Assembly: GCF_033153115.1 (NCBI RefSeq)
Contig: NW_026889751.1
Coordinates: 1,488,001-1,552,000 of the forward strand
Origin: Saccostrea echinata
Lineage: Eukaryota
DNA: 64,000 nucleotides
Reading direction: 5' to 3'
The position numbers were made by a program, and so were the translations under genes. A model generated the notes under the pieces. That model saw nothing but the letters and a program-made list of their open reading frames with translations, was not told the origin of the DNA and did no database searches. This document shows positions 3,337 to 64,000 of this stretch, in pieces. Position 1 is the first letter of the stretch; every line of letters starts with the position of its first letter.

Positions 3337-3819
3337 CTAGTTAAGAAAATTGAGCATTGGTACTTCTTTACATTTAATAACTGATACATTTTATGACATA
3401 AGTGATACAAAGGCATGATGTTTTTAATAGCAATTTTTTCACAATATACATGTTATCACTTTATTATGGCTTCAGTGATCTCACAAAAATTTAATGAATA
3501 ACATACAATGTATGTCCGAACCTCTTCCAAATGATGTACGTCAATCAAATTCAAATTTATGGCCAAAAACAACATTTAAAATCAAAACCATGACATATCA
3601 AAACTAGAGGTATTCATTTGTGATTAAAATTTATTCCCACATAGAAACAAACAAATTAAATTAACAGTTTATCGGCTTTTACCTTTGTTATTTAAAAAAC
3701 ATAATATTCACATCTTCTTTTCTATAAGGAATTTCATACTGGCATTTGAGCAAAACAAAGAAAACAAAATGTGATCCAGGTACTGGTAATAAGAATGCTT
3801 TAAATCTTGTGTCACCTAC

Positions 3820-3953
3820 CGGTGGACAAACAAGAGGGGGGCACTGTATCGGGAAACACGAGGCTGTTCCGTCTTGACACACACATTTTGTACAGGGAAG
3901 GGGAGACCACTCATGTCCATCATCATAAGTTACACCATCGACTAAGCACGAAC
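3820..3953 (-). CDS. FRAS1: FRAS1-like coding exon 6 (134 nt, SSCLVDGVTYDDGHEWSPLPCTKCVCQDGTASCFPIQCPPLVCPP)
   Basis: TTCTCAG acceptor, CCG|GTAGGT donor, phase 1 to 0. Lies inside ORF 3688..4026. Confidence 0.95.
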
Positions 3954-5229
3954 CTGAGAAATCAAATGAGATGAGCTTTACAAATATTAAAATTGGCAAA
4001 TAAAATGCATTGCATGTTAATATCATATCAAACTCTGAACTTTCATTGCTAGCTTTAGCATATATAGAATTAAAAATTGCAAAAAAAAGGTGTGTATACT
4101 GTATTTATAACGTCAGTCATTTTAAATGAAGAGAATGTATGTATAAATGGTGTCAAACTGCCTCATACTTGTTAAATTTCCACTTTCTGAGCAATTTCAC
4201 ACAGTTTAACACATAACTTATCACACTGTGTCAAAGGTATTTAGGTGGAAGTTTGACAATAGATTTAACTAGAAGGAAAAATTTAATTATTACAGTGTTT
4301 ACTGTGTAAAGTTATCTACAGATTTGAGTCATTTCTCAGTTTCTTTCTGTAAAAGTAATACTCAAGCCAATACATATTTTCAACAACAACAAAAAATTCA
4401 TGCGGTAAGCAAATATTTTAATTTTGCAAGTGATGAAAACTTCAGTTTCAAAAGGTACATTTACATGATCAACATGTCTTGATTACCAATAATAAAAATA
4501 TTCACAGTAAAGTGTAACCCCCCCCCTTTTTGAAGTTTATTATCACTTCTCTTACTCATGATTATACAATGATATTCTATGTATACATCACCATCACAAG
4601 AATTCAATTACTCAGTGCAGCATATGGATTGAAAAGGAAGTAAGAAAAGAACAGACTCCATGATTATGCACATGTATGGAAGCCAATCCAATCAATAATT
4701 AGTCACATCTTGATACATCTAACAAATTATTCCAAAATTATTCCAATTCATCCCTTCCTAATGACACATTAATGAAAAATCTGTCACTAATGTTGAAAGA
4801 TAACCTCTCTCTTCACAATATCAAGATGTCTAAAAGATAAAAGTATGAAAAGGGGGATTTCAGAATTGATTTGTAAGCCATATTGCATTAATACTTTATT
4901 CCTTAAACTTCATGTACTTGATATGAAATAGATGAATAATAAACATTAGGTAATCAAAGATTATGAAGCTCATCTCGATGAATGTTATCTATAATGCAAA
5001 GTCTTTTCCCAAATGATCTACTAATTACATGAACATTAAAGGCCCTTCTCTAGCCAACTAAAAATACAAGTCACTTGCTGCATCTTCAAAGCAAGAAAAA
5101 ATTAGTCAAGGCAAGGACAGAAGTGTGTATCTCTACATGAATTATCTATACAAGTTTAGTCAAGTTAGGACACAATTACTTTGGGTATCAATCTGCTCAA
5201 AAGAATTAAATCTGACCACTTAAAAAAAA

Positions 5230-9271: not shown

Positions 9272-9857
9272 CTGAAAAAGATAAAATCATCCAAATGTTA
9301 ATAAGTACTCTAGGGTATCTACTGTGTAACTGATTCTAATGTAAATGTTCAAGACTCTCAATTGTCTATATTTGGGGCCGTTCAAAGGCCCCATTCCCAA
9401 TTCAAAAAAGGTACCTTTTTCCCCAGCTGAATGTGTTAATTTTCCCAATACATGTAGTCATTTTCCACTAATATTAAAGAATGCATAATTGGATATATAA
9501 TAACAACACCTGCTTCTCACTATATAGGTGTAATTATATGGCTAAAGTGCATCTATCATGATACACTGGGGATGTATCATGATATAAATCATGAAATTTT
9601 ACCTTTCATACTTTTAATGTGATTTGTAGGTCTCTGTAACTTCCTTTAACAATGTGAAAGGATAAAACTTGTAGATTATTTCATCAAGTTCACAAATACA
9701 TTTATGTAACATTTAATAAGCTCTGAAAACAATAAAAACATCATAAGTAAGTAAGGAAAATCACTTTTATCAGGTATATTTAAAAAGAAATAACAAAAAT
9801 TATATGGATTTTGTACCACAATGCAGTAAAATTTTTGGGTGTATTGCAGTACATGTA

Positions 9858-10051
9858 CTGTAAACCAACTTTTAATTGCATGCAAGAAATATCTGTGAGT
9901 TTCACGACCTACTTTACTCATGAATATTAATCGCCGCAAACTTCTTTTGCTTTGCATTTGAAGAGAATGTTTCCTCAGTCATGAAAATTAATCGTGATTT
10001 CAAACTGATGAATCCGAATAAAAGATGATGCAAATAATAGTTGGTTTACAG
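9858..10051. mobile_element. MITE with TA target duplication (Tc1/mariner-like)
   Basis: Perfect 13-bp TIR CTGTAAACCAACT/AGTTGGTTTACAG, flanked by TA on both sides. Confidence 0.85.
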
Positions 10052-11799
10052 TATACCTATACATGTATATTGTATATCATTGCATCCCTATACTTTTGAA
10101 TCTCACATTCTTCTGCATTGCATATCAGAAATTTAGCTGATAAAAAACACCAAAAGCCCAATATACAATGATTTTAATGTAAAAATGATTTCCAAAAAAT
10201 TCCCACAAAAGTCACCAATTTTCCAAACTTTTATGGCCCTTCCCCCTTCCCAAATAGTGGTGTGAGAGCCCTAACCTCTTGTCTGAGTACGTATATACCA
10301 AATGAGGACAGTGAGAAAACTGCGAAAGAAATATTAAGAGATATATTTTTGATAAACATACATGTATCTTGAGATACACAAAAATAGAAAACAATATTCC
10401 CTATGATTCTTTGGCCTTGATGTAGGTAGATTACCTAAAAAGTACATGACTTTCACAAATCTCTGAGGAGAACATCTGCTTACTTCATGACCTCTGATTT
10501 CTAAATATGATAAGTTATGAAGTAAATCATTTGTAACACCCCAAATTTATGTGACTCACAGGCCACCAACCTAGAATCATTCAATGCCCCAATCATATCA
10601 GTAACAGATGAATTGCATCCTTTATTGAAATATCATTTCCTATATGATTTGTCATCTGTCAAATCTAAACTGTAATGGAATCATAAATGCACACTAATCT
10701 CACATCAGATTGATACACACCCGGTATAAATTACTAAATATATAGTAAGCCAACAAATATTTACTAAAAGCTATCAAAATGATACTTTTAACAATTTTGG
10801 GATAAACAGTAGTTTACAAGCTTTAGGGAATTCTGAGATTATAATCACAGAGTGTATACGCATACAGCATCATTAATCACTAGCAAGATTTTTAACTGCC
10901 AGCATTGTGACATGATTGCTTTAATTTTATGTGAGCCATAAATCTTAAATATGATCTCTTCTGCCTGAGGTGAAATGGCAACATTTGACTCGAACTGTGA
11001 GGCTCCCTTGCATCAGAGGAACAATAGAAAAGGTGCAACATGATTTTGAATCTGCTGGAATCATGTCATAGCAATACATCACACAGAGAAGGTAATACAC
11101 AGTGGTCAGGCAGCCATGGGGATTACTTTACACCTGTATTTAATCGTTACCTGACACAGGTGTGAGAGTGTAAATGATCAAAGGAATTCTAGGCTGTTCC
11201 GAAACATCTTACCTATGACTTCACTGATGAACTTACATGACATTTGTCTGTGGGGAGTTAAGTTTAAAAGAGGTTTTTTTTAATACATGTATAAAGAAAT
11301 GAAGTAACCCCCTGAACACTTTTACATATATACTTTTTAGCCACAGGCCTGACAGAATAAAAATTTCAAATTCTACCTTAGACTAATGAGACAGGAAAGC
11401 TTTGACACATTGTCATGATAGATCATTTACCATCCAAAAGAATTTACAAAATTTAATTATTAAATGGAAATGTCGTAAAAAAAATCATGTACATGTAGCC
11501 ATGTATGTGGTATTTTTAATACATTTATTAATAAATACAATTCCACAAAACTGAGAAATATACATGCATATTTTCTCCAAGGTAATGAATGCATAATTAG
11601 TGTACACTAGCCAAAAAGAAACCATGAACTTGTGTAAATCATTTAAATTTGAATTTATTTCCATAAACATCTGAATAATTTTAAATTAACAACACAGTCT
11701 GCTACTTCTTCATTGAGTATCATTATTATACAGTAAATACTAAATGTAGCATAAAATACATTACACAAAGTGGCTTAAATTGGTGCCTGTATAGCTCAC

Positions 11800-11907: not shown

Positions 11908-12809
11908 CTGAAGGATAAAAACATTGGTTAGCACTAGTACAGAGGTCTGACAACCAGAGTGTGTGATTCTGAAGGATAAAAACAAGATTTATTGCAATCA
12001 GAATAAAACTGTAGGAGGAGTAGCCTTTTAAAATAATTTTACAGAAATTTCTATTTAAGTAACCATGGCAACATCATTCAACAAAATCAAAAAGCAATAA
12101 TGACAATTATGTATATCATTGTAGTCTACTTGTATGCCAAGTTATACTGAAATCAGACAAATCATGTAGGAGGAGTAGCGTTTTGAAAGTATTTCAAGAA
12201 AATTTCTATTTTTAGTAACCATGGCAACACTTTTCATCGAAATCCAAAACTGGTAGAGAGAATTATGTATCTTAGTGTAGTCTACTTGTGTGCCAAGTTA
12301 TAATGAAATAAGATCAAAACTGTAGGAGGAGTAGCATTTTGAAAGTTTTTTTACAGAAATTTCTACTCTTAGTAACCATGGCAACACTGTTCATTGAAAT
12401 CAAAAACCGATATATAGAATTATGTATCTTTGTATAGTCTACTTGTGTGCCAAGTTATACTGATATCAGACCAAAACTGTAGGAGGAGTAGCATTTTGAA
12501 AGTTTTTCACAGAAATTTCTATTTTTAGTAACCATGGCAACACCGTTCATTGAAATCAAAAACCGATATACAGAATTATGTATCTTAGTGTAGTCTACTT
12601 GTGTGCCAAGTTATATTGAAATCAGACCAAAACTGTAGGAGGAGTAGTGTTTTGAAAAATTGTTTACAGACGGACGGACAGACAGATGGACGGATGATGG
12701 ACACCTTACTATCGCATAAGCTCTTCTGGTCTCTGACCAGTAGAGCTAAAAACATTGGTTAGCACTAGTACAGAGGTCCGGCAACCAGTGTGTGATTCTA
12801 AAGATAAAA
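11875..12809. repeat. Three copies of a 61-bp unit spanning the exon 3 acceptor, split by a Helentron insertion
   Basis: TAGTACAGAGGTC..CAACCAGAGTGTGTGATTCTGAAGGATAAAA at ~11875, ~11936 and (with a 2-nt deletion) ~12766. Confidence 0.9.
11981..12750 (-). mobile_element. Non-autonomous Helentron/CvA-pearl-like element with ~156-bp tandem array
   Basis: GTAGGAGGAGTAG recurs at 12011, 12166, 12322, 12479 and 12635. (GACG/GACA) microsatellite and terminal hairpin AGCTC..CTGGTC-TCT-GACCAG..GAGCT. Inserted in an A/T run with no TSD. Strand is relative only. Confidence 0.8.
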
Positions 12810-12964
12810 TTATCAGTTAGCATGTACTCTTTCTTTTATAAGTTTTTCATTCTATACAATATGATATACAATGTACAAGTATATAATATATATTATAATG
12901 AATAAGATGTAAGCTGCATTTAGAACTACATGTACTTTTTATTGGTTTTATATATTTACAACTA

Positions 12965-13138
12965 CAGTTGAACTTCGGTATCTCGAACACTGATATCTCG
13001 AATACCATGGATATGTCGCAGTGATTTGGAAGTCCCAACTACTTATTCTGTAAGTATTTTACCCTCGATATCTTGAATCCTCTGATATCTTGATGTTTTC
13101 CTCGGTCCCATCGAGTTCCAGATAATGAGGTTTGACTG
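12965..13138. mobile_element. Tc1/mariner (pogo/Tigger-like) MITE
   Basis: TA-CAGT...ACTG-TA termini with imperfect ~24-bp TIR (CAGTTGAACTTCGGTATCTCGAAC vs CAGTCAAACCTCATTATCTGGAAC). Confidence 0.85.
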
Positions 13139-16100
13139 TACTCTTTACTGGTTTTATATGTCATTTTAAAATTGTCTGTATTACCAATTCTATTTGTTGG
13201 ATAAAATTTGAGAAGTCTTGCTATTGATGATCAAAAGCAAACTAAAAAGGTCAACTCAAAAATCGCAGAGTATTGCTATACAGGTCATCGTTTGCATTTT
13301 AAAACTTTCCATCTCCTTAGAATTTTAAGAAGTAAAATTAGGAAAAGGGTGAAAAGTATAACTTTCTGCACTTGAAATGTTTATGCTCTTATCTTTGATC
13401 ACATATTCAGTTAATAATGCTGTTGGTATTTTCATTGAAGTCTCACATTATGCTCAGGATAATAGATTTGAAGCAGATGTAATTTTCTCTCATTAATTAT
13501 ACCTTAGACTTTTATTAGATTAAAGTTAAGTATTAGTCCTCTGACACTGCCTTCACTTGCCCTCCCTGGTATAGCATACAATGTAAGAACTCTTTGTTCA
13601 AAGTACTATGTAGATATTCTTTTAAAATATTAAATATGTACATCTTACACAAATACACTACAATCTATTTCTGTAACTTTGTAAAAAAAAAAAAAGTATA
13701 CATGTATTAATTTAACCAATCAAAATATCAGGAAATATCCAGGAGGATTTTATTTATAATTTATTGCCTTCAGATCTTAATTTCAATACACTTGTAAAAT
13801 GATGAATTTAGGCAAGCCAGTTATTATTTGTTCTCCACCCTTTAGTGATACTTGACAGTGCATGATTTTGAAAATCCACAGAGCACTGTGTTAAAGGTCC
13901 TTCAGTTTACAGCTTCTTAGTTCTGTCTGTGGGGTAGCCAAATTTTCGTCATTATAGTCTGACAACAAACTGCAATATTTGTCTAGTATTCTGACACAAC
14001 CCTGAAAAGAGATCCCAGGGTAGATGCAGATTGTGAGTCTATTTTGTTACTGTCAGTCTGCTTAGATAAAGGCCACTCTGTGTGAGACCCGGGCTTTGTT
14101 GAACACAGTTAAGACCGTCAATGTTGACTTTAAATCATATCTTTGCAGTCACATCACTTCTCTTTACAACAGAACAGGTATTTAAATAAGACCTTTGTCA
14201 ACAGTCTCTAACAATTGTTATTATTGGATAAATGTGAAATACAAATTCAGACACAAAATTCTAGAAGGCTTTAAGTGTTTTGTGTTTTCTCTAAAAACAC
14301 AACCTCTGCCTCATAAAGGAATATAACTCCTTACCACTCACTAGATCAGTAGCTTGAAATATCTAAGTCAAATAAAACTGCTCTAAGAATGTAAAGGCAA
14401 TGAAACAAGGACCTTCAATTCATATATGACATGGGTGAAATAGAACAATAAATTACCTAAAGGTCTATTTGCATTGTTGTTTAATTAAAGAAATGACCTG
14501 GTACAGCCATGTCAAGTGGAGCATTAGTCGTCTACCCAGTCTGTTCAACATCCTGTGTCCACTACTATCTGAACACAGACATTGACCGAACAATGACCAT
14601 GATGGATTCGTTAAACAATGTCAATCAAACCAACATTTAAATTTCATTATTCGTTTACATAGACAGTTCTTCTTATATATGTTTATATTGTATTCATAAT
14701 AATTTATTTCAATTTTTGTGCAAATCAAAAAATTGTCTCAGGACACATAAATCCTCTCCAGATGAGTGGATTCTTCAGTTATCAACCATCTCAAAGTGGT
14801 AAAAAATTATAAAAAGAAATTCCACAGTTCCAAAAAGATTATAATATTGAGTTGTCTGGTTAAAGTGGAAATCTTGGCTCAGATGTGAGATAATCACTGC
14901 ATCAAATCTAAATAACTGAGTCAGAGCATGACTCAATTAGTTACTTTCATTAGTTTCATATGTCTAGTCCATTTAATGATAAACTGGTGTACCGCAACAC
15001 ACAAAAAATGTACTGTATCATGGTACAAAAGCCTATACCTGCATATCATGATATATAACATTTAAGCAATTTATTGTAATTCCTTTTAATTTAAAATTAT
15101 AAATATAAAATTGACTTTCTTTATTTACTTATAATGCTGTTTTTATTCTTTTTAATGTGTTCAGAGCTTATGAAGACAAGTGTTGCATAATGTATTTGTA
15201 AACTTAATCAGTTAATGTAATAATCTACAGGTTTTACCCTATCACATTATATATAAATGAAAGGTGAAATATTGCAATAGTTTGAGTGTATCATGATGTA
15301 TCATGATACTCTCTAGCTGTATCGTTACATTCTTGATTTACAATATAACGAACACTAACCAGTTTCAGTAAGGCCCAATTTCTTCATTTACTGAGGCAAT
15401 CAGCAAGAATTAAGTGTAGGTTACATGAGAAATGACCACTTTCAAGTTTTTTGGTTTGAAATTTTACACGTTCAAGATAATTTCTTAAAACAATACCTTG
15501 ATGCATAAAAACTAAATGAGGGTATTAAGTGGTAATTAATCTTTATCTAACAAGCAAAATGTGTAGGAAAAGTGTGGTAAACTGGTAAAATTATCAACTT
15601 ATCAAGTGTCCAGAAAAAAAGCACATTCAAAAGGGGGTTTCTCTAAAATAAACCCCATCTGTTAGTTTCCATCTGCCATTACTATCATACATAAGGCCGT
15701 GGTAAATAACAACTTTCTTTTACATCCCTTCTTCATTCTTTGAAAAGATATCCTCCAGTCCGACCAAAAAAAAACCAACACACATTTCAAAAAACATTAC
15801 CACCAGTTGTTGTCAAACACATGCTTGAAATCCATGTAAACATCAGTACAAAAAAAAAACATTTGTATACTGAAATGATAAAATAAAATTACTGAACCTT
15901 AAAAATCTCACGGCTATGATTACATTGCTGCTTGCAGCAGCCCGCCACAGGAAGTCGCATACGATATGAAAAATTAAAATATAAGTTTTAGTGGTCTCAT
16001 GTTTCCGGATATTGAACTTTTAACAACTGTTTAAAAAATGGCAATGTAATTCAAGATTTCTGACTTGTAAAAACAGAGGGCGCATAGCAAATGACAGTAT

Positions 16101-19138: not shown

Positions 19139-20218
19139 TATCCTGTCAGCCACACAGGTATGTTTCTTTTCATGCAAAAACGTGAATGAAATTATGCTTT
19201 TCCCCATAAAGCCCAAGACCAGTGTAATATCGAAGACGGGTAATTCCCTAATACAGCATAATAAAACTCCTAAATTTATAATATCTCTCGTAATTTGAAT
19301 TTAAAAATATCTGGCTTCTATTTCCCCCGAATTCGGCATATAGACATCTTTGCATTTACTAGAACACATAGACTTGAGACAGGTGGAGGTGGGCTAATCT
19401 TCTAATTTAATTTAGATGTTCAATGGAATATTGAACAATAGAGTACATCTAAGGGACTGGAGGAATTAAAGTTCATTGAGTCTCATGCTCTCTGTTCCCC
19501 GTGAATAGCTTGTAAGGAGGGTTTGAAAATGACTCGATTTGAATGCAGTGTAACAGCTCTTATTCAGCATTGATTTACTGGGTGGTACAAAGGTTACCTG
19601 TGATAGATGCTCAAGAGTAACCGAGATAACCGAATTTCCCTAGTCAGTTTATATCACATGTACATGTATTGGCCTCTAAAGGCAAGCGCAGTATTTCACA
19701 AAAATATATTTATTTTTTTTTTGGTCTTTTTATTTTTATATACATATAAGTATTTGATGGACATCAGCATCCGTTCATATTTGTATCACCAAGAAACTCA
19801 AGAAAAAAAATCAACGGCACCCGTTATATAAGATGTCATGGTTTGAAGACCCACTTAAGTACCAGTGACATGGAATTTAATCTGATAATTAATCGGTTCA
19901 TTTAATTAAACTATTATCAACCAGAGTTAAATAACCTAGACGGGAGTGTATTGTTTAGATATGCACTGTGTTCCATTATTTCATACACATCTTCGTGCAT
20001 CTGTATGGCACAAAATGCACGTCAACTTGTCAATATTTAACCCACAATAGGAACTAACTTAAAACAATTTTTTCCCAAAGTTTATCGTCAACCGTGTTTA
20101 TGCGTAATGATTAAAAGTTGCAAATCTGCATTGTAGATTAACAACTGCATTTTATTTCCGACAGAACAGAATGCGAACACCTTGGTACATTAATTTGAAT
20201 ATATTGATCTGTACGTAC

Positions 20219-23352: not shown

Positions 23353-24825
23353 TTAGGTCACCTGGGTCACTCAGGTGACCTATTGCTATCCGTTTTCGTC
23401 CGTCGCTGAACCAATTTCAAACTATTTGGCATATAGCATCTTTGGGTGAAGGGGAACAAAAATTGTGAATTTCATGGCCCCAGGGTCAGGGGTTCTGGTG
23501 TTAGGGCAGGGCTCTATTGATTATATAGTGAAAATGCATTAATTCATTGAAAATCTTCTTCTCTGCTCCTGGGTATTAAATAAAATAACTAAGAATATAG
23601 TTATGATGAGCATGACTGCCTTTTCAGAAATTGAGAATTTTATGGCCCCTAGGTCAGGGTTCAGGTGTTAGGGCGGGGCTCTATTGATTGTATAGTAAAA
23701 TTGCATGACTTTCTTTGAAAATCTTCTTTTCTGCTCCTGGATATTAAATAAACTAAGTTCATAGTTATGATGAGCATGGTTGCCTCTTCCAAAATTGTGA
23801 ATTTCATGGCCTCTGGGTCAAGGGTTCTGGTGTTAGGGCAGGGCTCTATTGATTATATAGGGAAAATGTATAAATTCTTTCAAAATCTTCTTCTCTGCTC
23901 CTGGGTATTATTCAAACAAAGGAAGTGCATGGTTATGATAAGGAAGAATGCCTCTTCCAAAATTGTGAAATTCATGGCCACGGGTCAGGGGTTCTGGTGA
24001 AGAGGGGGGGGGGGGGGGCTTTATTGATCATATAGTGAAAATGCATAATTTCTTTCAAAATATTTTTTTCTACCACTGGCTATAAAGCAAAGAAACAAGT
24101 GTATAGTTATGATGAGCAAGGGTGCTTCTTCCAGAATTGTGAGTTCATGGCCCCTGGGTCAGATGTTCTGGTGTAAGGGTGGGGCTTTATTTATTTAATG
24201 ATATAGTGAAAATGCTTTTCCTTGAAAATCTTCTATGCTTCTGGGCATATTCGAGGCAAACAGAGTAAAAGTTTTAATTTGCAAAGGTATTTTTAACAGA
24301 ATTTTGAACACCTGGACCATTTAGTCAGGTGTTCTGGTCCTGGCCAGGGCTCTATTAACTTGTATTCTGCTGAGCAAAGTTATTCCCCTTTGCCATTCAC
24401 CTTTGATAATTAATCACTGTAAACAATGTATTTGAAAGGTTAATAGAATAAGAGAATTATGCAAGAATATTTATTGTATAATACAAAAAGTACTTTCGTA
24501 GTTTTAATGAGCAGATAGACTTGGAAGTAATAGATGAATAAAAACAAGACAAATATAACTTATCTTTTAAAATGTTCTTCAAAGGCCAAGAGAGGCCAAT
24601 GTGAGAAGTAATACTATGGGGTTAAAAATAGACATTTTGTTAATAGTCTGCATGGTAATAGTGATAAATGGGGGACAGATAGATACTAAACCAATTATTT
24701 TGTTGATGCTAATCATACTATTTTTCTTGCTTTTGGGCAACAAAGCTTCATTTATCAGTTTATGGATCCTCAAAATGGTTGTATTGTACTCAGGTGACCG
24801 TTAAGGCGCCCTTGGGCCTCTTGTT
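23353..24825 (+). mobile_element. Non-autonomous Helentron carrying ~166-bp (Cg170-like) satellite monomers, copy 1 (~5 monomers)
   Basis: Starts with hairpin TAGGTCACCTG..CAGGTGACCTA. Ends CTCAGGTGACC.TTAAGGC..CTTGGGCCTCTTGTT. ~500-bp non-satellite segment shared with the other copies. Strand is relative. Confidence 0.9.
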
Positions 24826-43105: not shown

Positions 43106-43733
43106 TGAGGGTTGTCACAACTGTCATAAAGTATTTAATAATCGAAAGTTTTCAACGTAAATATATATAGTATTACCTCTATCTATTTTGACTTTTGCTG
43201 TAAAATTTCATTCAGACATAAACAATACTTTATAAAATATTAAAATAAACACAACGTTGGGTCTCGCCTATCGCCGCACATCAAGAATGTACTGACGTCA
43301 TTATGACGTTTCTCTTCGACATTCATTTTGAATACATAAGATTAACGCAAAAAGAAAAGAATTAAGAAATATCATTTGAATGAACACATTTCAAATAATT
43401 TCAATGCTACAACCCAAAACAAGACGATTTATAGCAAAATGGAAGTAAAAATTAATAAAAAGAAGCAACGTGAGAGGTTAAAAAAGGTAGGCGAATGAAC
43501 TGAAAATGAGTGCCGAAAAGTAACGTCTTACATGTACATGTAACGACGCCGGTAACATTCCTGCCGTACGGCGATAGACAAAACTTAACAACTAACTGTG
43601 TTTAGTGTAATATTTTAAAAAGTATTTTAAATAATCAGCAAATTCAAAATAGATAGGGGTCAAATTTTGTTGATAACATTGGATTATTAAAGTTTTTATA
43701 GCAGTTGTGACAATACTATGGGATCAACCCTCG
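43106..43733. mobile_element. Tc1/mariner-like long-TIR MITE
   Basis: Right end ATCAACCCTCG-TA, left TGAGGGTTG. Imperfect inverted arms of ~220 bp (TTGTCACAACTG, CTATCTATTTTGA, ATCGCCG, CATTTT). Sister copy at 59027. Confidence 0.8.
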
Positions 43734-45650
43734 TACAAGTAGGTCGCTGTTATTAGAACACGATCAATGAAACAATGAGTATTCCTCTAAAATGAATGCT
43801 CCGTTCCTGGTGGAAGGGGAATTTTTTTTTTCCATAGTTGTTCGATTTACCCACAAAGAAAAAGGGGTTTTTTTATTGCTAAACGTTTATTTAACATGAT
43901 CACAAAAACTTCCATACGAATTGGGAATAGGACCAAATTTGATTAAGGATAATGAAAACCCTGACTTCGTATAATAAATTGTGTATCCTTGCACGTATAC
44001 ACGTAAATCCTTAAGACAGAATGTTTGCATGCAAGAATTGTTTCTTTCTGCTGATTCCAAACTTTTCTTAAAATTCACCTTTTTTATGTTCACTAAACGA
44101 AATACTGTATACAACTATACCATTGTTATTTTTTGATAAAATACATGTACTTTGGAAAATAGTGTGCTGATTTATAATACAAAAGTATTGCATTATTAAA
44201 TGAAGCTTGTAAGGAAATGGAAACCGTATGGGAGGGGGGGGGCTGTTTGGGGAACATCTGTTACGGTTCCCGTTAAAAATAACAAAAAATTTATGTTAAT
44301 ATGGGTCTGCCTTTAGAACCTCCAGTAGAATTTAGGAAAAAGCTCGAGGTCCTTGGTTTGAAAATTTTATCCAGTTCTATTTTACCACTACTACAACTAC
44401 TCTCTCTCTCTCTCTCTCTTGGCAATTGAAAGTTGGGTTCTAGAGCTGTACATATTTTAAGATATAAAATAAAATTCCAGTCTAACATTTGAAACATTAT
44501 AAACATGACTAAAAGCAATGATGAACATTTTCAAATTGTTCTTGCTATGCAGTTCTTTTTTTTTTCTTCTTTTTTTTTAAAGAAAGTGCAAGAGTTTTCC
44601 TTTGAGAAGATTGTTCAGTTATTGAATGTTTTGAATCCATACTCTCACCACTCAACGCTTTGAATGACAGTGATGTAGACAAGCAAAGAACGACCCTGAA
44701 TTAGAAACATTTCTCCGAAGAATCGAGGCAATTAGTGCCGTTATTTGAAAAGGCTATTTCACAATAGCACCAGGAATCCACTGCAATCCCATGTTTTACG
44801 GGAAAAGTGAGAGATCTGAAACGTGTCATAAACCTGAATACTCCATGGAATAGGAAGTATTTAATTCTGCGCAACACTTTGGTGATGTGAATATAGTCAG
44901 TCATTTACACTGCCAAGAATACTGGTAGTTTTCAATGATAGACCTCTATGGCATATGATATTCTGTCATTCCTGATTTATAACCAAATGAATGCATTAAC
45001 AGTTTACAATAGAGATACTGGGAGAAGTAGAGACGAGACAATCTCTTCAGTTACAGTGCAGTATCTTGGGATGATGAATGAATGTGTTAGAAAAATTCAA
45101 TATTTATGTCATAAAAGGTATATTTGCCGTAAGAATCATGCATTTATGGTTTTAAATGAAGGCGTCTTGATTTCCTACGTTATGGTAGACATTACAATAC
45201 ACGTATTTAATGACTCGTATCTGCCTCATTTTCCATTTCCCCAAAGACTGCATGTTGCTTTTACAACTTTTCATTTCTGGGACTTTGCGATTTACTGTCC
45301 TATTCCGGATATTTGACAGGACATCAAATAAATCCAAGGAAATGAAAGTCCCTTAACCTTCGTGCACTACCTACAGGTTCAACGCACTCCCAAATTCGGC
45401 GTATATTCCTATAAATATGTGTTGACGCTTGGATTATTTCTCCCTAAAGTGTCAATTACGTCCCCCTTTTGATGAAGAGGAATACTTGTTTTGTATTGAA
45501 TCTTTGCTGCTAATGCTTGTTTCTATCTGGTACGATCCAAAACAAGTTTCATGTATATATTTCTTTTCCTTACATATACTCATGATATATGGCGCCTGAT
45601 TATTCAATTTTTAACTCATGTGCGGTGTACCATAGAAACTCACATGTTAA

Positions 45651-46110
45651 AGCTGAACACGACTCGTAAATAGGCATACGCCATATTCGATTATGCTATC
45701 TACGACATCAGCACTGGGATATACCTTTCGCATTCGTTACGCCTGGCTGCACTTTATTCTCACGGGTATCGGCGTGGAATGGCGACACGTGTTCGTGCTG
45801 GTTATCTTGAATTGCCTTTGTGTATTTATTTTATTGCAGTTACGTGTATTTGTGTTTGTTTGTGTACTGCACTGACCTGTGCAACTGTTGTAAGTTTCTT
45901 TGGTATCTTACTATCCTGCTGTAGAAGTACACAGTTATTTATTTATTTATTGTCACTACCGAGTGCTGTGAAGCAAGCGTCCATCTACACCGGTGATAAC
46001 TGATTAAACTGAACAGTAACTAAGTGAACGACTTATATAGCGGCCCTCAGATATAGCGAGTGAATAATCGAATATGGCAGACAAATTTCTTTTACGAATC
46101 GTGTTCAACT
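45651..46110. mobile_element. Kolobok-like MITE, copy A
   Basis: TTAA-AGCTGAACACGACTCGTAAA ... TTTACGAATCGTGTTCAACT-TTAA, with subterminal GCCATATTCGATTAT inverted repeat. Confidence 0.85.
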
Positions 46111-46249
46111 TTAAACTGAAGATATGATTCAATGTCGTTTAGGGGAGACAGAGAAGTGGATATAACCAGAAATGTTACTTTCTAAATCTCATTATGTGAC
46201 AATTGAGTTCTGACATGTTGATGTAAGACGATGTGTCTTCCAACATTGA

Positions 46250-46669
46250 AGCTGAACACGACTCGTAAATAGGCATACGCCATATTCGATTATAATATCT
46301 ACGATATTAGCCTTCGCATTCGTTACACCTGACTGCTTTATTGTCACGGGTATCGGCGTGGAATGTCGATACGTATTCGTGCTGGTTATCTTGCATCGTC
46401 TTTGTTATTTATTATATTGCAGTTACGTGTATTTGTGTTTGTTTGTATGCTGCACTGACCTGTGCAACTGTTTTTTTGGAATCTTACTAATCTGCCGTAG
46501 AAGAAGTACACAGTTATTTTATGTATGTGTAGCATGCGTCCGTCTACACCGGTGACAATTGATTACACTGAACAGTGACTAAGTGAGCGGCTTATATAGA
46601 GGCCCTCAGATATAGCAAGTGAATAATCGAATATGTTGGACAAACTCCTTTTACGAATCGTGTTCAGCT
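46250..46669. mobile_element. Kolobok-like MITE, copy B (same family, same orientation)
   Basis: TTGA-AGCTGAACACGACTCGTAAA ... TTTACGAATCGTGTTCAGCT-TTAA; collinear with copy A apart from indels. Confidence 0.85.
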
Positions 46670-47781
46670 TTAAAATCTACATGTGAACTTGACATGAGAC
46701 TTCAATGTACTGTAGATTGTTTAGAGTTTCATTCAAATGAGCATGGAGGGCCATGGAAGTCTTGTTTAATCTTTTAGCCTGTCCGAGATTTCATCATTAC
46801 AGAACGACGCACTTTGTTTCTGCAACAGTCTGTTTCCGTATGCGAAAGAATTCAAGTTTGTTTTATATTTTAAATATTATATTGAAAGAAAAAAAATCGT
46901 TATACGCGTCTTATTATTGTTTTATTAATCCATTTTGGATCCGGGGTCGATTTCAAATTCCTTTTTTTAAACAACACACAATACAAATACTATTATACAT
47001 CAAACACTGACAAAGTAATAGAAAAGTAATTCAAACCGTCCAGATAGAATGGTTAAATGGTACCTGATGTTACAGTTTATTATGTACGTAGTTCGGTAAT
47101 GGCAGTAAAGTAAAAATCAAGGAGAGAGAGATAAAAAAAAACATTATGATGAAATACGTAATTCGGGATCAAGTTCCCACTTTCACTAAGCTTCTCCGAA
47201 TAATGAAAGTACACTGCAAGGAAGTGGAAATGGCAGACCATATCGGATAATTAGGAATAAAGGGAGATAAGCATTTACCTGTCACGAGACTTAATATTCA
47301 AGCCTTCACCGACAGGAACCACCAAGACAACCATCCCATTGAACCCTCTAATCAGCTAATCGAAACCGTCAATATCTCGTAAAAAGAGAATATCAGGATA
47401 TTACGAACTCTGTTTTCATGGCGTCTTATCTTTTCTATTGTCATTGTTTAGCGATATCGCTGAATAATTTTTACCTGTACCGTCAATTATAGGTGCATTC
47501 AGCTGATAGCCAGTCCATTCTTTATACGTACTCCCAGGAAACCATTAATGGAATCATTACTTAAATTTATTTCTATCACGTACATCTCCATTTACGTTTG
47601 ATAAGTGCATATTATTAAGGACAGCTTTCTAAAGTCACTGCTTTTGAGTGATTATTGTTTTTGTTCACTCAAGGACACCGGTTTTTTTTCATGCAAGAAT
47701 TAAACTGTAAGAAAGAATGAAGAAATAACGGGTACACAAAATGTCATTGCAGTGCACCTTATTTTTAACAGTTCCATTTCC

Positions 47782-48745
47782 CTTTTAGCTCTTCTGGTCA
47801 GAGACGGTTTTGGTCTTATTTCAGTATTACTTGGCACACAAGTAGACCACGCTTAGATACAAAATCGGTTTTGATTGATTGATTGTATGTTGTTTAATGT
47901 CCCATTCGAGAATTTTTCACTCATATAGAGACGTTACCATATACCGATGAGGGGCTTCAAATTTTGACCTTTACTCTGCACTCAGGACCATTGAGCAGTA
48001 AGGGATCTTTATCGTGTCAACGCATGCCGTGACACGGGTCCTCAGTTTTTAAGGTCTCATCCGAAGGACCAGCAACTTTCACTTCAAAGTGCCGAGCGCC
48101 TGGCGAAGGAACAGTTGCTACCCATTTTTTATCGACTTAGGTCAGTCGCGGCCGAGATTCGAACTAACGACCTCCCGATCACGGAGCGAGCGCTCTCAAT
48201 TTGAATTCGATGATTGGTGTTGCCATAGTTACTAAAAAAAAAGAATTTCTGTGAAATACTTTCAATTGCTACTCCTCTACAGTTTGGTCTAATTTTAATT
48301 TTACTTGGTACACAAGTAGAATGTACTAAGCTACATTATTCTGTATATTGGTTTTTGATTTCGAGTTGCCATGGTTACTAAAAATAGAAATTTCTGAGAA
48401 ACACTTTCAAAATGTTACTCATCCTACATTTTTGGTCTGATTTCAATATAACTTGGCACACAAGTAGATTACACTGAGAAACATAATTCTGTGCATCAGT
48501 TTTTGATTTTGGTGAAGTGTGTTGCCATGGTTACTAAAAATAGAAATTCCTGTGAAATACTTTCAAAACACTACTCCTCCTACAGTTTGGTCCGATTTGA
48601 ATAAAATTTGTTTACAAGTAGATTACACTGAGATACATAATTGTTTTTATAGTTTTTTTTTTTATTTTGATGAATGATGTTGCCTTGGTTTTTAAAATTA
48701 TTAAAGGCTATCCCTCCAACAGTTTTTGTCTGATTGCAACAAATC
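47782..48745 (+). mobile_element. 156-bp-satellite Helentron-like element, opposite orientation to 11981-12750, interrupted by a SINE
   Basis: TTTTAGCTCTTCTGGTCAGAGAC start; units with GTTGCCATGGTTACTAAAAATAGAAAT and CTACTCCTCCTACAGTTT. Confidence 0.8.
47871..48196 (-). mobile_element. tRNA-derived SINE (bivalve Meta/Deu-like), slightly 5'-truncated
   Basis: Minus strand: AGAGCGCTCGC..GTTCGAATC B box, GACCTAAGTCG..GGTAG core, ATATGAGTGAAAAATTCTCGA and a (CAAT)n tail. Confidence 0.85.
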
Positions 48746-53409: not shown

Positions 53410-54790
53410 TAATTGCTCTGAGAAAGACTCCAACCTTTAAGAAGATATCCAAGTTGAAGCAGGCAGAAATAACACTGGGTTAAGAAGTAACTCCTCTCGT
53501 TCAAAATTGTATGAGGAATGGGGTAGGGATCTTCTACGACCAAGGAGTAAGGTTCATACGTTGATATAATTTTATAGAATAATAAACCATGGCTATTCAC
53601 CTCAATATTTGCATGATTTGATTTAACCTTTTCGCCCATCAAATCATTCCTATAACCTCAGAGCCAATGATGCACAATTCAAAATTCCTCACATTAGAAC
53701 TATATCAGAAGTACATCTTTTATGGAAAGTTTTCTTCCATCAACAATTAACTGAAATATCTTCATTCAAGAGTCTTTTGAATTCTTATTTTTGTTAGGAA
53801 AAAAAAGCCAATGAACTTTTTCATTTTGGAATAAGAAAATACAACATAATACATTGTCGGTTAAGGAATAATGAAAGTAATTTGATGGCAGACTTGTATG
53901 ACCAATGTTTATCAGAAACGCCAATGTGTGAACACTGTACTGATGCTTATACTCTATTTTTTTGCTTGTCCAAATATACAATTTCTAGATATGTACGTTT
54001 TCAAACAATACAAAATATTATTGATTGTGATCATATCTCTGAACTTTATACATTTATTGACTGAGTTCGAGGGCAATATGCGTTTTGTCAGACCCCAATA
54101 ACCAAACTATTTGCCTAAAGCCGTTAGGCCGAAGGCAAACAGTTTGGTTCGAGGGGTCGACAAAACGCATTTTGCCCTAGAACACAGTCAATAAATGTTT
54201 TGTTATACCTTTTATTTAATTTTATGTTTTGACATAATTGTATCTTGTATCTGTCACTTTCGAACACCAACGAATGCAAATGAGATTTAGCTGATCCCGC
54301 CCACATTGTGACGTAAGCGGTCGACAAGTCCAATATCTCACTCTGCGGTCAAACATCGATGATGACCGCTCAGCAATTGCAAAATATTGGAAGTGTTTGG
54401 CTTTTTTTTTTAGTATAGATTTATATAGGAACTAATTTTTAAAGGTATAACAAGAATTATTATTTTATGGTAGTCCGGATCATGGACTCAAAATTAATAT
54501 TCAAATATTTGAAGCAGTACATGCATATATAGCAGCAACAAAACATTCTATTTAAAAAATATGTAACTTTTGTCAGTATTTCAAAACTGGTACTTCTCTA
54601 TTTTTTCCTTCTCTTTTGTTGTCACCCTTTTCACAATGTTTGTTTAATAAATTAATGTTATACTTACAGTGTATATTCATATTGACCTTTTTGTGGGTAG
54701 AGCTCTAAAATAGATAAAAATCATTATGTCTGCTTCTCAATCTCATTCACTTTTTATGAATAAAATTACGTATGTAAATAAAAAAAAATA
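53410..54790 (+). mobile_element. 3' part of a CR1-group LINE, interrupted at ~54050-54453
   Basis: Decayed YNLRAND..KIPHIRT and IIHCRLRNNESNLMADLY..CEHC..KY, resuming after the insert with ELLFYGSPDH..NIQIFEAVHAYI. AATAAA and A-rich tail near 54760-54790. Confidence 0.8.
54050..54453. mobile_element. Fold-back element with two consecutive inverted-repeat pairs (possibly non-autonomous Crypton-like)
   Basis: ~66-bp imperfect arms 54050-54116/54133-54198, then TTGTTATACCTTT (54200)/AAAGGTATAACAA (54441). Its position inside a LINE reading frame shows it is an insertion. Confidence 0.7.
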
Positions 54791-57700: not shown

Positions 57701-59026
57701 TTATTGAACTTATTAACAGTGATAGGCTGTTCAAAGAATTTTATATCTGATCATTTGTTTTCATTTTGACTTACTTTCATTTCTACCGCCCATTTGGTAT
57801 AAATCTCAATCAATACCTAACTCATATCCGTGCATTTCTCAAAAGGCGCTGCCATGTCACAGGGAATCGGTAATCACAACGAATGTGCTGGGGTATATGG
57901 AATTTTCGACGGTGGAAACAATAGATGCTGCAAATAATTTTTTTACTTTTTTAATATACTTGTGTTTTCCCCCCAATTTTTCACTTCGAAAATTTTTTTT
58001 TCTAGCTAAGGTCAACAGATTTTGGAACTAATTACAGAAACAGCATGAGGAAAGAACTTTATAGCTTAGAAATTGTTGCAATCTTAATCTATAAACACTG
58101 AATCAATAACGCCCTCCACAGGTAATTTTCTTGACTAACATAGCAAAAGTAATCTTAAACGAACTCAGTTATAATCCACAATCGACGCGAAGCAAATTTG
58201 GATGGAAAATAAGATGAATTTAGAAGAGTATCTGAAGTTTTCCTTACTAAATATCTCCGCATTTCAAGTCAAGTCGCTGTGCGCTACATGCTAAGTAAAC
58301 GTTTCTTCTGAACAACTATAAATAAAACTTTATCATGAAATGATAATTAAGTTATGTAAACTAAAGATGAAATGTAAAAATTTATCATGTTTGAATATTT
58401 TATTTCTTAGGATATTTTAATTAGGTGAAAATCTAATAACATATTGGAGATGCCGATACAAATTATTTCATATGAATATACTAAGTACTTCATTTACATA
58501 GAAGCCTTATCCAGATTGTCAGAAGAACGTATAATGCTTAAAAATATTGAGTTTCCAGCGAATTGCCAAGTAATGATATATAATTGTTGTTAAGTTTTGA
58601 AACTTAAGTATAGAACATATTGATTTATCAGATGAATTCTTCTTGCAGGCAGGATCTCTCATGCAATCTTAAACATTTCTTATTCAAACATATATATCAA
58701 TATGAAGAACACACCCTGTACGACACGTTATATCTCGTAAAGTATGCACTGTATAAACATTCCTTCAAACTGGTTATTATCATAATGCTCTGGAACTATA
58801 ACTATTTACCAAAGTTTGTTATCCGTCTACACCAAGCTTTACATAAATAAATAATTCTATACAAAATTACATTGTCAGTTTTTGATGAAAGAAATATAGC
58901 ATTGTGCGTTCTATTCCAAGAAATGTCACTTAAAATATATTTATTGATGTCAATATTTATTCTGATATTAAAATGTTAATAAATATATATACGATACTGT
59001 TAAACCCATTTGCTTGAGGATATATA

Positions 59027-60640
59027 CGAGGGTTGATTCTAAAGTAATGTCATAACTGATAAAGAATTTTTGATAATGGAATTTTTCATTATAATACCCG
59101 TACATTAGTGTTAAATCCAGACCCTAAAAAGGGCATGGTAATCCAGTAATCAAAAGGGCACTTTACGCCGCGACAAGTTTTCATGAGGGCACTTTTTTAA
59201 CGTCTTTGAAATTATAAATATTTTCTTATCATGTTTATGTACTTAAATTATTATTTAATACTGAAATCTTTAGTTATACAAGTATCTAAAAGAAAAATTT
59301 ATAAATCTGTCAGCTTAATTCATTTAATACACACTGAGAGGGCAATTATTGCCAAAACTGAAATTCAAATTTTTTAATCAAGAAATTAGTATGGTTATCA
59401 AGGTTATGCTTAAAAAGTAATAGGTGTGAATATTTTTGTCACTTGCTCAAGAATTATTTTAGTCTGGGGTATGATTTTTTCCCCTTGCTTTAATATTGTT
59501 ATTTGTGTATGAGGTAAATAACAGAACAAAATTGCAAAGGGGGGGGGGGCTTCTTGGATAATAAATGTAGAGGGCATTCTCTTTATTTTGAAAATAATCT
59601 ATCAACAAAATCAAGTGAAAACTGATTATACCAAAAAATTAAACTTGAAATAATATATAAATTGGTTAAAACTTTTTTTCTGGCTTAGAAACATTGAGCC
59701 TCTGGGTGTCAAATCAAAAAGTAGAACACAGAATCATTGAACATGTTGAAAGAAACTAACTTCATACTTTGTTGTTTCCTAGCCCATTTCACACATAATA
59801 TTCAGGGTTTTTTGGTACTGTACATTGTAAGTTGACTTAATTCATCAGCAGTTTTATTTTTCACATTTCTTCATCAACTCTGTTTTTCTACTTTCAATTT
59901 AAAAAGAAACGATCCTGATTTAAAATGTGTAACATTTTAATTTACAAATTAATCTATCTTTGACACTGGGCTAATTCTTGCATAATCAATGCAATCAAAT
60001 GATATTTTCTCGTGTTATCTCTTGTACCCTAACAGCCTGAGGCATGTTACCTGGCCAGGTGGCTGTGTGCGTTCAAGCGAGAAGTGATTTCCTGTCCTGA
60101 ATTCACACCTTTGCGTGCATTAAATAAACAAAGGGGCAAATCAGCATGCACTGAATAAACAAAGCCGCTAGTCCATCTTGCCTCTGCTAGGCATATTTAT
60201 ATATTTTTGCAAGGAAAAAAGGGCATGGCGCTGGAAAAAAGGGCATGGCGCCGAGAGAAAAGGGCATGGCGCCGCGCCATGCTAGTTTGCTTTAGATTTA
60301 ACACTACGTACATGTATCTATTTTGATTTTTGCCTTAAAATTTCATACAGTTAAATCGAACACTTTTAGAAATATCAAGATAAACACAGCGTTACTTTTG
60401 TCGGCAAGAACGGTAGAATGAAAACGACGTCATTATGATGTTGCTTTTAGACACTCATTTTCAGTTCATCCGCAACACTTTTATACTCCCACTTGCTTCT
60501 TTTTAATAATCTTTATTGCCATATTGCTATGAAGCGTCTTGTTTTGAGTTGAAATTATTCGAACTCTGAGCAAGTGTTTGTTTCCTAATTCATTCCTATT
60601 GCATAGATCTTATGTATCGTCAGATTCAGGAGTAAGTGAC
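59027..60640. mobile_element. Second copy of the 43106 mariner-like MITE, interrupted by an hAT-like element and truncated
   Basis: TA-CGAGGGTTGAT start; 60314-60620 aligns to 43180-43330 and to the reverse complement of 43340-43520. Confidence 0.75.
59106..60306. mobile_element. hAT-like non-autonomous element, 1.2 kb
   Basis: TIR TAGTGTTAAATC/GATTTAACACTA, flanking direct repeat CGTACAT, and AAAAGGGCA(TGG) subterminal repeats at both ends. Confidence 0.85.
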
Positions 60641-62637: not shown

Positions 62638-63256
62638 ACAGATTCACTATATTATCAATAGAGCCCCCCTCCCCACCGAGAAACACCAGAGCCTCTGACC
62701 CTGGGACCAGAAGTTTGCTCATTATAAGTTTACAATCACTTTGTTTATCTGCTTAACACTAAAGAGCAGACAAGATTATTGAATAGAATTAATGCATTTT
62801 CACTATATTATCAAGAGCCCCACCCTTACGCCAGCACACCTGACCCAGGGCTCATGCAATTCACTACTCTGGAAGAAGCACTCTTGCTCATCATAACTAT
62901 ACACATAGCTTCTTTGCTTTTTAACCAGAAGCAGAAAGGAATATTTTCAAAGAAATTTCGCTTTTTCACTATATAATCAATAGAGCCCCCCTTCACCAGA
63001 GCCCTTGACCCTGGGGCCATGAAATTCACAATTTGGGAAGAAGCATCCTTGCATATCATAACAATGTACTTAGTTTGTTTAAATAATACCCAGGGGCAGA
63101 GAAGAAGATTTTCAAATAAATCACCTTCCCTATAGGATCTATATAGCCCCGCCCTAGCACCAGAACCCCTGTCCCTGGGGCCATGAATTTCACAATTTTG
63201 GAAGAGGCATCCTTGCGTATCATAACAATGTACTTAATTTGTTTAAATAATACCCA

Positions 63257-63295
<39 letters not shown>

Positions 63296-63429
63296 CACTA
63301 TATGATCTATATAGCCCCGCCCTAACACCAGAACCGCTGACCCTGGGGCCATGAAATTCACAAATTTGGAAAAGGAAGTCTTGCTCATGATAACTATGTA
63401 CTTAGTTAGTCTATTTAATACCTAGGAGC

Positions 63430-63463
<34 letters not shown>

Positions 63464-64000
63464 CACTATCTAATCAATAGAGCCCCTCCCTAGAAGCCAG
63501 AACCCCTGACCCTGGGGCCATGACATTCACCATTTTGGATAAGGCACTCTTGCTCTTCATAACTATGTACTTAGTTAGTTTATTTAATACCCAGGAGCAG
63601 AGAAGAAGATTTTCAAAGAAATAATGCACTTTCACTATATAATCAATAGAGCCCCACCCTAACACCAGAACCGCTGACCCTGGGGCCATGACATTCAAAA
63701 TTTTGGATAAGGCACTCTTGCTCTTCAAAACTATGTACTTAGTTAGTTTATTTGATTCCAAGGAGCAGAGAAGGAGATTTTCAAAGAAATAATGCACTTT
63801 CACTATGTGATCTATATAGCCCCACCCTAGCACCAAAACCCCTGACCCTGGGGCCATGAATTTCACAATTTTGGTAGAGGGCTCAATGCTTATTACAATC
63901 ATGCCAACAGTTTGACTGGTTGATGTCCAGGAGTGAAGAAGAAGATTTTTGAAGATTGCATTAATTTTGGTGGTTTTAGCCCCACCCCTCAGGCCCCGGG
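61965..64000 (-). mobile_element. Helentron/Cg170-like copy 4 (~8 monomers), runs off the window end
   Basis: AACAAGAGGCCCAATGGCCTTAACGGTCACCTGAG start; closely collinear with copy 2 over the non-satellite segment and first monomers. Confidence 0.92.

Follow-up and report, generated by a model that had tools for sequence, protein, structure and literature searches.

The excision footprint of Tc1 in Caenorhabditis elegans is among the closest described counterparts of the sequences reported here, with identical letters and the same TA target. In alleles of unc-22(st192), TA-CA-TG-TA is a real product of Tc1 excision, accounting for 24 of 103 wild-type frame-restoring alleles when the entries of PMC4490562 Supplementary Data 3 are summed. 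The assay of that paper sees frame-restoring products only, and its figure legend gives 2-nt 3′ overhangs. Footprints in general are treated in the available sections of PMC6943129 and PMC2874221. Sleeping Beauty footprints (TACAGTA and TACTGTA) also combine a TA duplication with terminal bases kept by end joining, but the available sections of PMC6943129 describe three bases retained from one end (+5), whereas TA-CA-TG-TA retains two from each end (+6). For the pogo/Tigger MITEs (DDE_1, PF03184), of which Emigrant/Lemi1 is an example, empty Emigrant sites with extra TIR bases have been interpreted as footprints (accessible text of PMC1636448). A hexanucleotide microsatellite born by slippage can arrive at the same final sequence as a run of such footprints. 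A literature search of partial coverage, with the classic Tc1 and Tc3 papers outside it, found no paper naming TACATGTA as a pogo footprint, and for molluscs and other marine animals it found none that treats fields of TACATGTA or the stacking of TACATG scars; neither footprints nor TIR sequences are given in the available text of PMC5521727, PMC2872659 and PMC7325037. Footprints of this kind are known products, and the site at 43529 of the Saccostrea echinata sequence is a natural instance in which the footprint is doubled.

The window, which is the whole 64-kb stretch of S. echinata DNA that was analysed, has a GC content of 33% and contains a single perfect double of TACATG, which reads TACATGTACATGTA. 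This double is located in the right arm of an old element whose inverted arms are long (Table 1). The right end of this host element is CAACCCTCG followed by TA, while its left end is damaged and its start is approximate. A three-way alignment places a 12-nt gap opposite the insertion in both outgroups, namely the left arm in reverse complement and a sister copy of the host repeat. The absence of the extra bases from these two marks them as an insertion in this copy, and the initial annotation was correct that precisely (TACATG)x2 has been inserted at a TA of which the left arm and the sister copy each have only one. The bases flanking the insertion are unlike both outgroups, with T for A at -1 and C for T at +2. 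The T at -1 completes the palindrome listed in Table 1, and the empty site is itself a quasi-palindrome. The sister copy also matches the host interior adjoining the right arm (43332-43530 with 60617-60434, 74%); the two are 74-81% alike in the interior beside that arm, and host copies overall are 69-81% alike. One neighbouring scar lies within 1 kb of the doubled site, which is without sign of function and is a neutral mark in an element that is dead. The host family is also represented by a terminal fragment at 59025-59085, oriented like the sister copy and 1.2 kb upstream of it, and the similarity of the sister copy resumes at the TACATGTA at 60309, perhaps a scar at a rearrangement point. 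When metagenomes were scanned with a 17-nt motif of the host, none of the 117 loci obtained aligned to the host past the motif.

Table 1. Coordinates of the doubled insertion, the filled and scarred sites and their host repeats in the 64-kb window.
Feature	Coordinates	Strand	Basis or remarks
Old host element with long inverted arms	43106..43733		Arms ~69% alike over 43112-43303 / 43541-43713
TA(CATGTA)x2, 12 extra bases at TA	43529..43542		Letters, three-way alignment, sister comparison
Perfect 16-nt palindrome, insertion plus T at -1	43528..43543		T differs from both outgroups
Single TA of host left arm (empty site)	43302..43303		Alignment
Sister copy of host family	60309..60617		Single TA 60434-60435; similarity stops at TACATGTA (60309-60316)
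Unit 1 of tandemly duplicated site, containing TACATGTA at 12927-12934	12918..12953	+	
Unit 2 of duplicated site, with element at same TA as TACATGTA of unit 1	12954..13159	+	
Non-coding TIR element, CAGT..ACTG between TAs, 174 bp	12965..13138		18/24 terminal bases complementary
Second polarised footprint, +CATGTA after TA	28271..28278		Compared with paralogous repeat unit near 62745, 86.5% alike
TACATGTA whose first TA ends one repeat and whose second TA starts a 194-bp TIR element	9850..10053		Element 9858-10051, ends CTGT..ACAG

The word TACATGTA occurs 24 times in the window, at 23 sites (~0.36 sites per kb, or about one per 3 kb), compared with 2.8 occurrences expected from an order-2 Markov model and 3.5 from an order-3 model (P 6e-13). 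No other TA-N4-TA word of the window is comparably enriched (the best others reach 2.9-fold, not significant), and TACAGTA is not enriched, with 19 occurrences for 14.5 expected. One-mismatch variants of TACATGTA are not enriched in the window (63 observed, 55 expected), indicating that the words are young relative to the diverged host copies. A purine occupies position -1 of the TA in 36 of 46 half-sites, compared with fractions of 0.50-0.52 in four backgrounds (P ~2e-4), and there is no clear bias at positions -4 to -2. This preference for purine-TA-pyrimidine sites resembles the Tc1 target consensus CAYATATRTG given in the available text of PMC9635669. In the unc-22(st192) assay the scar is one of 26 products recovered under selection, whereas in the window it is a fixed natural word, dispersed at the density given above and once doubled.

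A search within the window for paralogues spanning each of the 24 occurrences yielded one clean case, the polarised footprint at 28271. The proposal that the six-letter unit is an insertion at TA is thus borne out at two sites, by +12 at 43529 and +6 at 28271, and a footprint origin of the TACATG unit is well supported. The indel table obtained by self-BLAST of the window is an unfair test for an excess of such insertions, being composed mostly of satellite and homopolymer gaps and having missed the gap at 43529; one of its six 6-nt entries is CATGTA. The scars are patchily spread, 9 of the 23 sites falling in the 5.7 kb between 8019 and 13699. Near-doubles at 19655-19668 (one mismatch) and 11484-11497 (two mismatches) may be decayed stacks or native CATG-TA targets. 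At 35612, a 5-nt gap relative to a paralogue can be read as TA-CTCG-TA, possibly another type of footprint, in an ambiguous alignment.

The best evidence in the window, stronger than the double itself, comes from 12918-13159, where a filled site and its scarred twin lie side by side, a pairing seen there and not at 43529. The two tandem units have three mismatches in 28 flanking bases, compared with ten at the best unrelated site among 24,171 candidate TA sites tested, and the CA and TG inserted in unit 1 are the terminal bases of the element resident in unit 2. The twin is a direct link between TACATGTA and an element family. The element with TA-CAGT..ACTG-TA ends that had been reported from the letters is present, and the suggested tie between the six-letter unit and a CA..TG-ended element is supported by the twin and by the second +6 at 28271. 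The filled site may have been copied, one copy then losing its element by excision, or the element may have made a local hop of 30 bp.

The ends of the resident element align ungapped to those of three elements found in contigs of other organisms (L416, L390 and L396) that were searched for transposases of the pogo family (PF03184), and the first of these contains a pogo-type DDE_1 fragment, a short match of 52 amino acids (E 9e-5). The element is also TA-flanked, short and non-coding and possesses TIRs, like the pogo/Tigger MITEs in the accessible text of PMC1636448. From these resemblances it is probably a pogo-like member of the Tc1/mariner superfamily. The earlier label Tc1/Tc3-type is better replaced by this broader one. 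Unlike pogo systems, the window has no Pfam transposase match in the orfs scanned (8 of 31), and no autonomous partner of the element was found within it. A search with its TIR pattern gave no hits in genome contigs and none in viral contigs. No Pfam match was obtained for three orfs of another outside contig (L283).

The doubled site at 43529 is best explained, with moderate confidence, as two stacked excision footprints. Their makers would have been elements that target TA and end in CA..TG, probably pogo-like ones within the Tc1/mariner superfamily. In S. echinata, an element would have inserted at a TA of the host repeat, duplicating it; staggered cuts at excision would have left the two flanks with CA and TG, respectively; and end joining would have retained both, giving TA-CA-TG-TA. 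A later element could then have entered either of the two TAs of the scar, both being favourable on one side (purine-TA or TA-pyrimidine), and its excision would have left the same scar again, yielding (TACATG)x2. That the TAs of a scar are reused is shown at 9850, where they are common to two other TA-bounded repeats, in either order of arrival; the CT..AG-type element at 9858 is the only element in the window that occupies a scar TA. The surrounding interval (9650-10067), which comprises a repeat end, TACATGTA, the 194-bp CTGT..ACAG element and a second TACATGTA eight bases on, has the appearance of an insertion hot spot.

The initial annotation took the double as direct evidence of two cycles, which is overstated, since slippage or a templated insert gives the same letters. 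With one double observed among the 23 sites, the expected number is 0.07-0.14 if sites are re-hit independently (0.13-0.27 with flank preference), and background duplication predicts between 0.03 (from 4 of 3181 complex octamers, 0.13%) and 0.15 (from 3 of 469 other TA-N4-TA octamers, which extend to perfect 14-mers). The probability of at least one double is accordingly 0.065-0.13 under independent re-hit and 0.03-0.14 under background duplication. The double is therefore unremarkable given the singles, and one double fits the re-hit and slippage models alike. Matches to the double with up to two mismatches number 7 in the window, compared with 0.47 in shuffled sequence, an excess driven by the singles.

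Statistics on contigs of other organisms indirectly favour stacking at 43529. A scan of genome contigs for three consecutive units found 151 loci, most of them in a few records with eukaryote-like contigs, the eukaryotic nature of which rests on composition and transposase matches. Three of these records (G001, G002 and G003) were sampled as 120 evenly spaced 20-kb stretches (2.4 Mb); the contigs were picked for their triples, the stretches were not. Multiples make up 226 of 1029 arrays in G001, 35 of 464 in G002 and 10 of 168 in G003 (6-22%). In the first 60 stretches, doubling affects 36 of 25,227, 43 of 25,630 and 20 of 25,130 other complex hexamers, respectively (0.08-0.17%). For other hexamer cycles of palindromic type, the counts in the three samples are 4 of 881, 7 of 692 and 0 of 350 (0-1%). 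With arrays closer than 1.1 kb to the end of a stretch dropped, multiples are 6 of 259 arrays without a neighbouring scar and 42 of 440 with one or two, all outside samples taken together (Fisher P 1.5e-4). In G001 the share of multiples climbs as more scars lie within 1 kb, from 2 of 97 through 26 of 222 and 60 of 295 to 106 of 276 where there are six or more; in G002 it goes from 3 of 117 to 6 of 41 with local scar count, and in G003 the trend is not significant (P 0.26). Low-complexity tracts could also be what this density trend reflects.

The alternative that survives best, though it appears unlikely, is that a single excision footprint was doubled later, its 6-nt unit being copied through replication slippage or gained through unequal exchange. 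It predicts identical letters, some other TA-N4-TA octamers of the window extend to perfect 14-mers, and about 2% of isolated scars are multiple across the three outside samples. Slippage also acts once arrays exist: they reach 17 units (L131), and among the matches listed, tandem copies in L366 hold two units in one case and three in another. Uninterrupted (TACATG)n runs of 17, 14 and 8 units were noted (L131, 3001-3104; L123, 413-564). A microsatellite that begins by slippage, however, copies neighbouring sequence, whereas the first unit at a scar consists of foreign letters at a TA, and the multiples stand far above the doubling rates of complex and palindromic hexamers and track scar density, a rise that slippage does not predict. 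Nor does it predict that a nearby TA, not contiguous with the first scar, should carry another, as seen when L276 is compared with L335. Counting against the stacking reading, multiples exceed the number expected from independent re-hit 3.4- to 7.6-fold, an excess that requires either a preference for scars or slippage.

It is doubtful, more so than slippage, that a single excision was followed by a templated or fold-back repair insert that recopied the junction, by polymerase-theta-type end joining or a local template switch. Such an event could account also for the T at -1, which makes the 16-nt palindrome and differs from both outgroups at a site already quasi-palindromic when empty, and the accessible text of PMC4490562 reports that single Tc1 excisions often leave the footprint together with templated inserts of 3-36 nt. 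The double is nevertheless absent from all rows of Supplementary Data 3 of that paper, a single adjoining substitution is unremarkable at 20-30% divergence, and the hairpin is not unusual when compared with shuffled sequences (z -1.6). Fold-back repair should also tend to leave symmetric flanks, and at -1/+1 the outside multiples show no excess of symmetry (85 of 271, with 98 expected). The T..A flank of the 43529 site is shared by 1 of these 271 multiples, and the site may therefore be atypical among them.

An origin of TACATGTA unrelated to transposons (CpG decay, purine-pyrimidine alternating tracts, a selected binding motif or assembly error) is very improbable and largely refuted by the filled and scarred twin, which it leaves unexplained along with the exact +6 differences at TA, even though the word alternates purines and pyrimidines, is often placed in such tracts in the outside contigs, and is reported as a promoter motif of Phytophthora. 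Those differences include the one at 28271 and, among outside arrays with a spanning paralogue, +6 as the commonest non-zero length difference in all three samples (32 of 324, 22 of 99 and 13 of 72), sharply so only in the last two. CpG decay was rejected separately as a source of the word; it would equally yield TATGCATA, of which there are 2 in the window and 72 arrays in G001, compared with 1029 arrays of TACATGTA.

The site at 43529 by itself is ordinary and matters little; its value is as one example of a mutational process by which a fixed six-letter insertion is written into genomes. We tentatively propose, as a possibility short of an even chance, that the scars are preferred landing sites of the elements that make them and thereby give rise to (TACATG)n microsatellites throughout the genomes of marine animals. 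The flanks of outside scars read YAYR-TA, which the CATG of the scar itself fits, so that TA-CATG-TA would supply a favoured half-site and cycles of insertion and excision would feed themselves. CATG is the commonest flank in G001 (176, compared with 21) and in G003 and the second commonest in G002, in part from decayed arrays. In the window, CATG adjoins a scar at two further sites, with 0.18 expected (P 0.015), which is a weak hint of stacking. In the outside samples the flank bias of doubles is not significantly stronger than that of singles (odds ratio 1.24, P 0.17).

In other organisms, elements were seen inside scars: in L413 and L415 a complete CAGT element occupies a TACATGTA at its second TA, and in L414 one end of such an element lies in a scar. 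Among 371 element ends, some of them internal tandem copies, 3 adjoin a scar, which is about the background of 0.5-1.4%, and a preference for scars as targets is not shown for the CAGT family by this count. If scars do attract insertions, they would provide a route to the birth of microsatellites that is not begun by slippage, and a tally of excisions, of which the element copies that survive keep no record. Past cut-and-paste activity would then be readable, as from a clock, in how many scars there are and what share of them is stacked, and a pogo-like MITE would be one maker of the scar, named by the twin at 12918-13159.

The density of scars reaches one per kb in the outside contigs. G001:C64, G002:C17, G003:C59 and the loci L118-L197 come from several records filed as bacterial metagenome-assembled genomes, yet the megabase contigs of these records look eukaryotic, with CpG ratios of 0.25-0.6 at many loci, pogo-type transposases and telomere-like hexamer runs. 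These TACATGTA-dense contigs in bacterial records are probably host contamination.

Several other features of the window were recorded. Two exon-sized matches to the von Willebrand factor type C domain on the minus strand (811-1221 and 3688-4104, Pfam E 7e-6 and 1e-10) indicate an animal gene at the left end of the window. Arrays of 168-bp and 148-156-bp units occupy 23457-24195, 28316-30444, 62772-63880, 11983-12670 and 48200-48697; these arrays, which have GACG microsatellites and palindromes nearby, fit oyster Helentron satellites by description only, as given in the accessible text of PMC7492417. A fully palindromic element of 135 bp (54057-54191) and a two-copy TIR element (45647-46674) have ends that are not of the CA..TG type.
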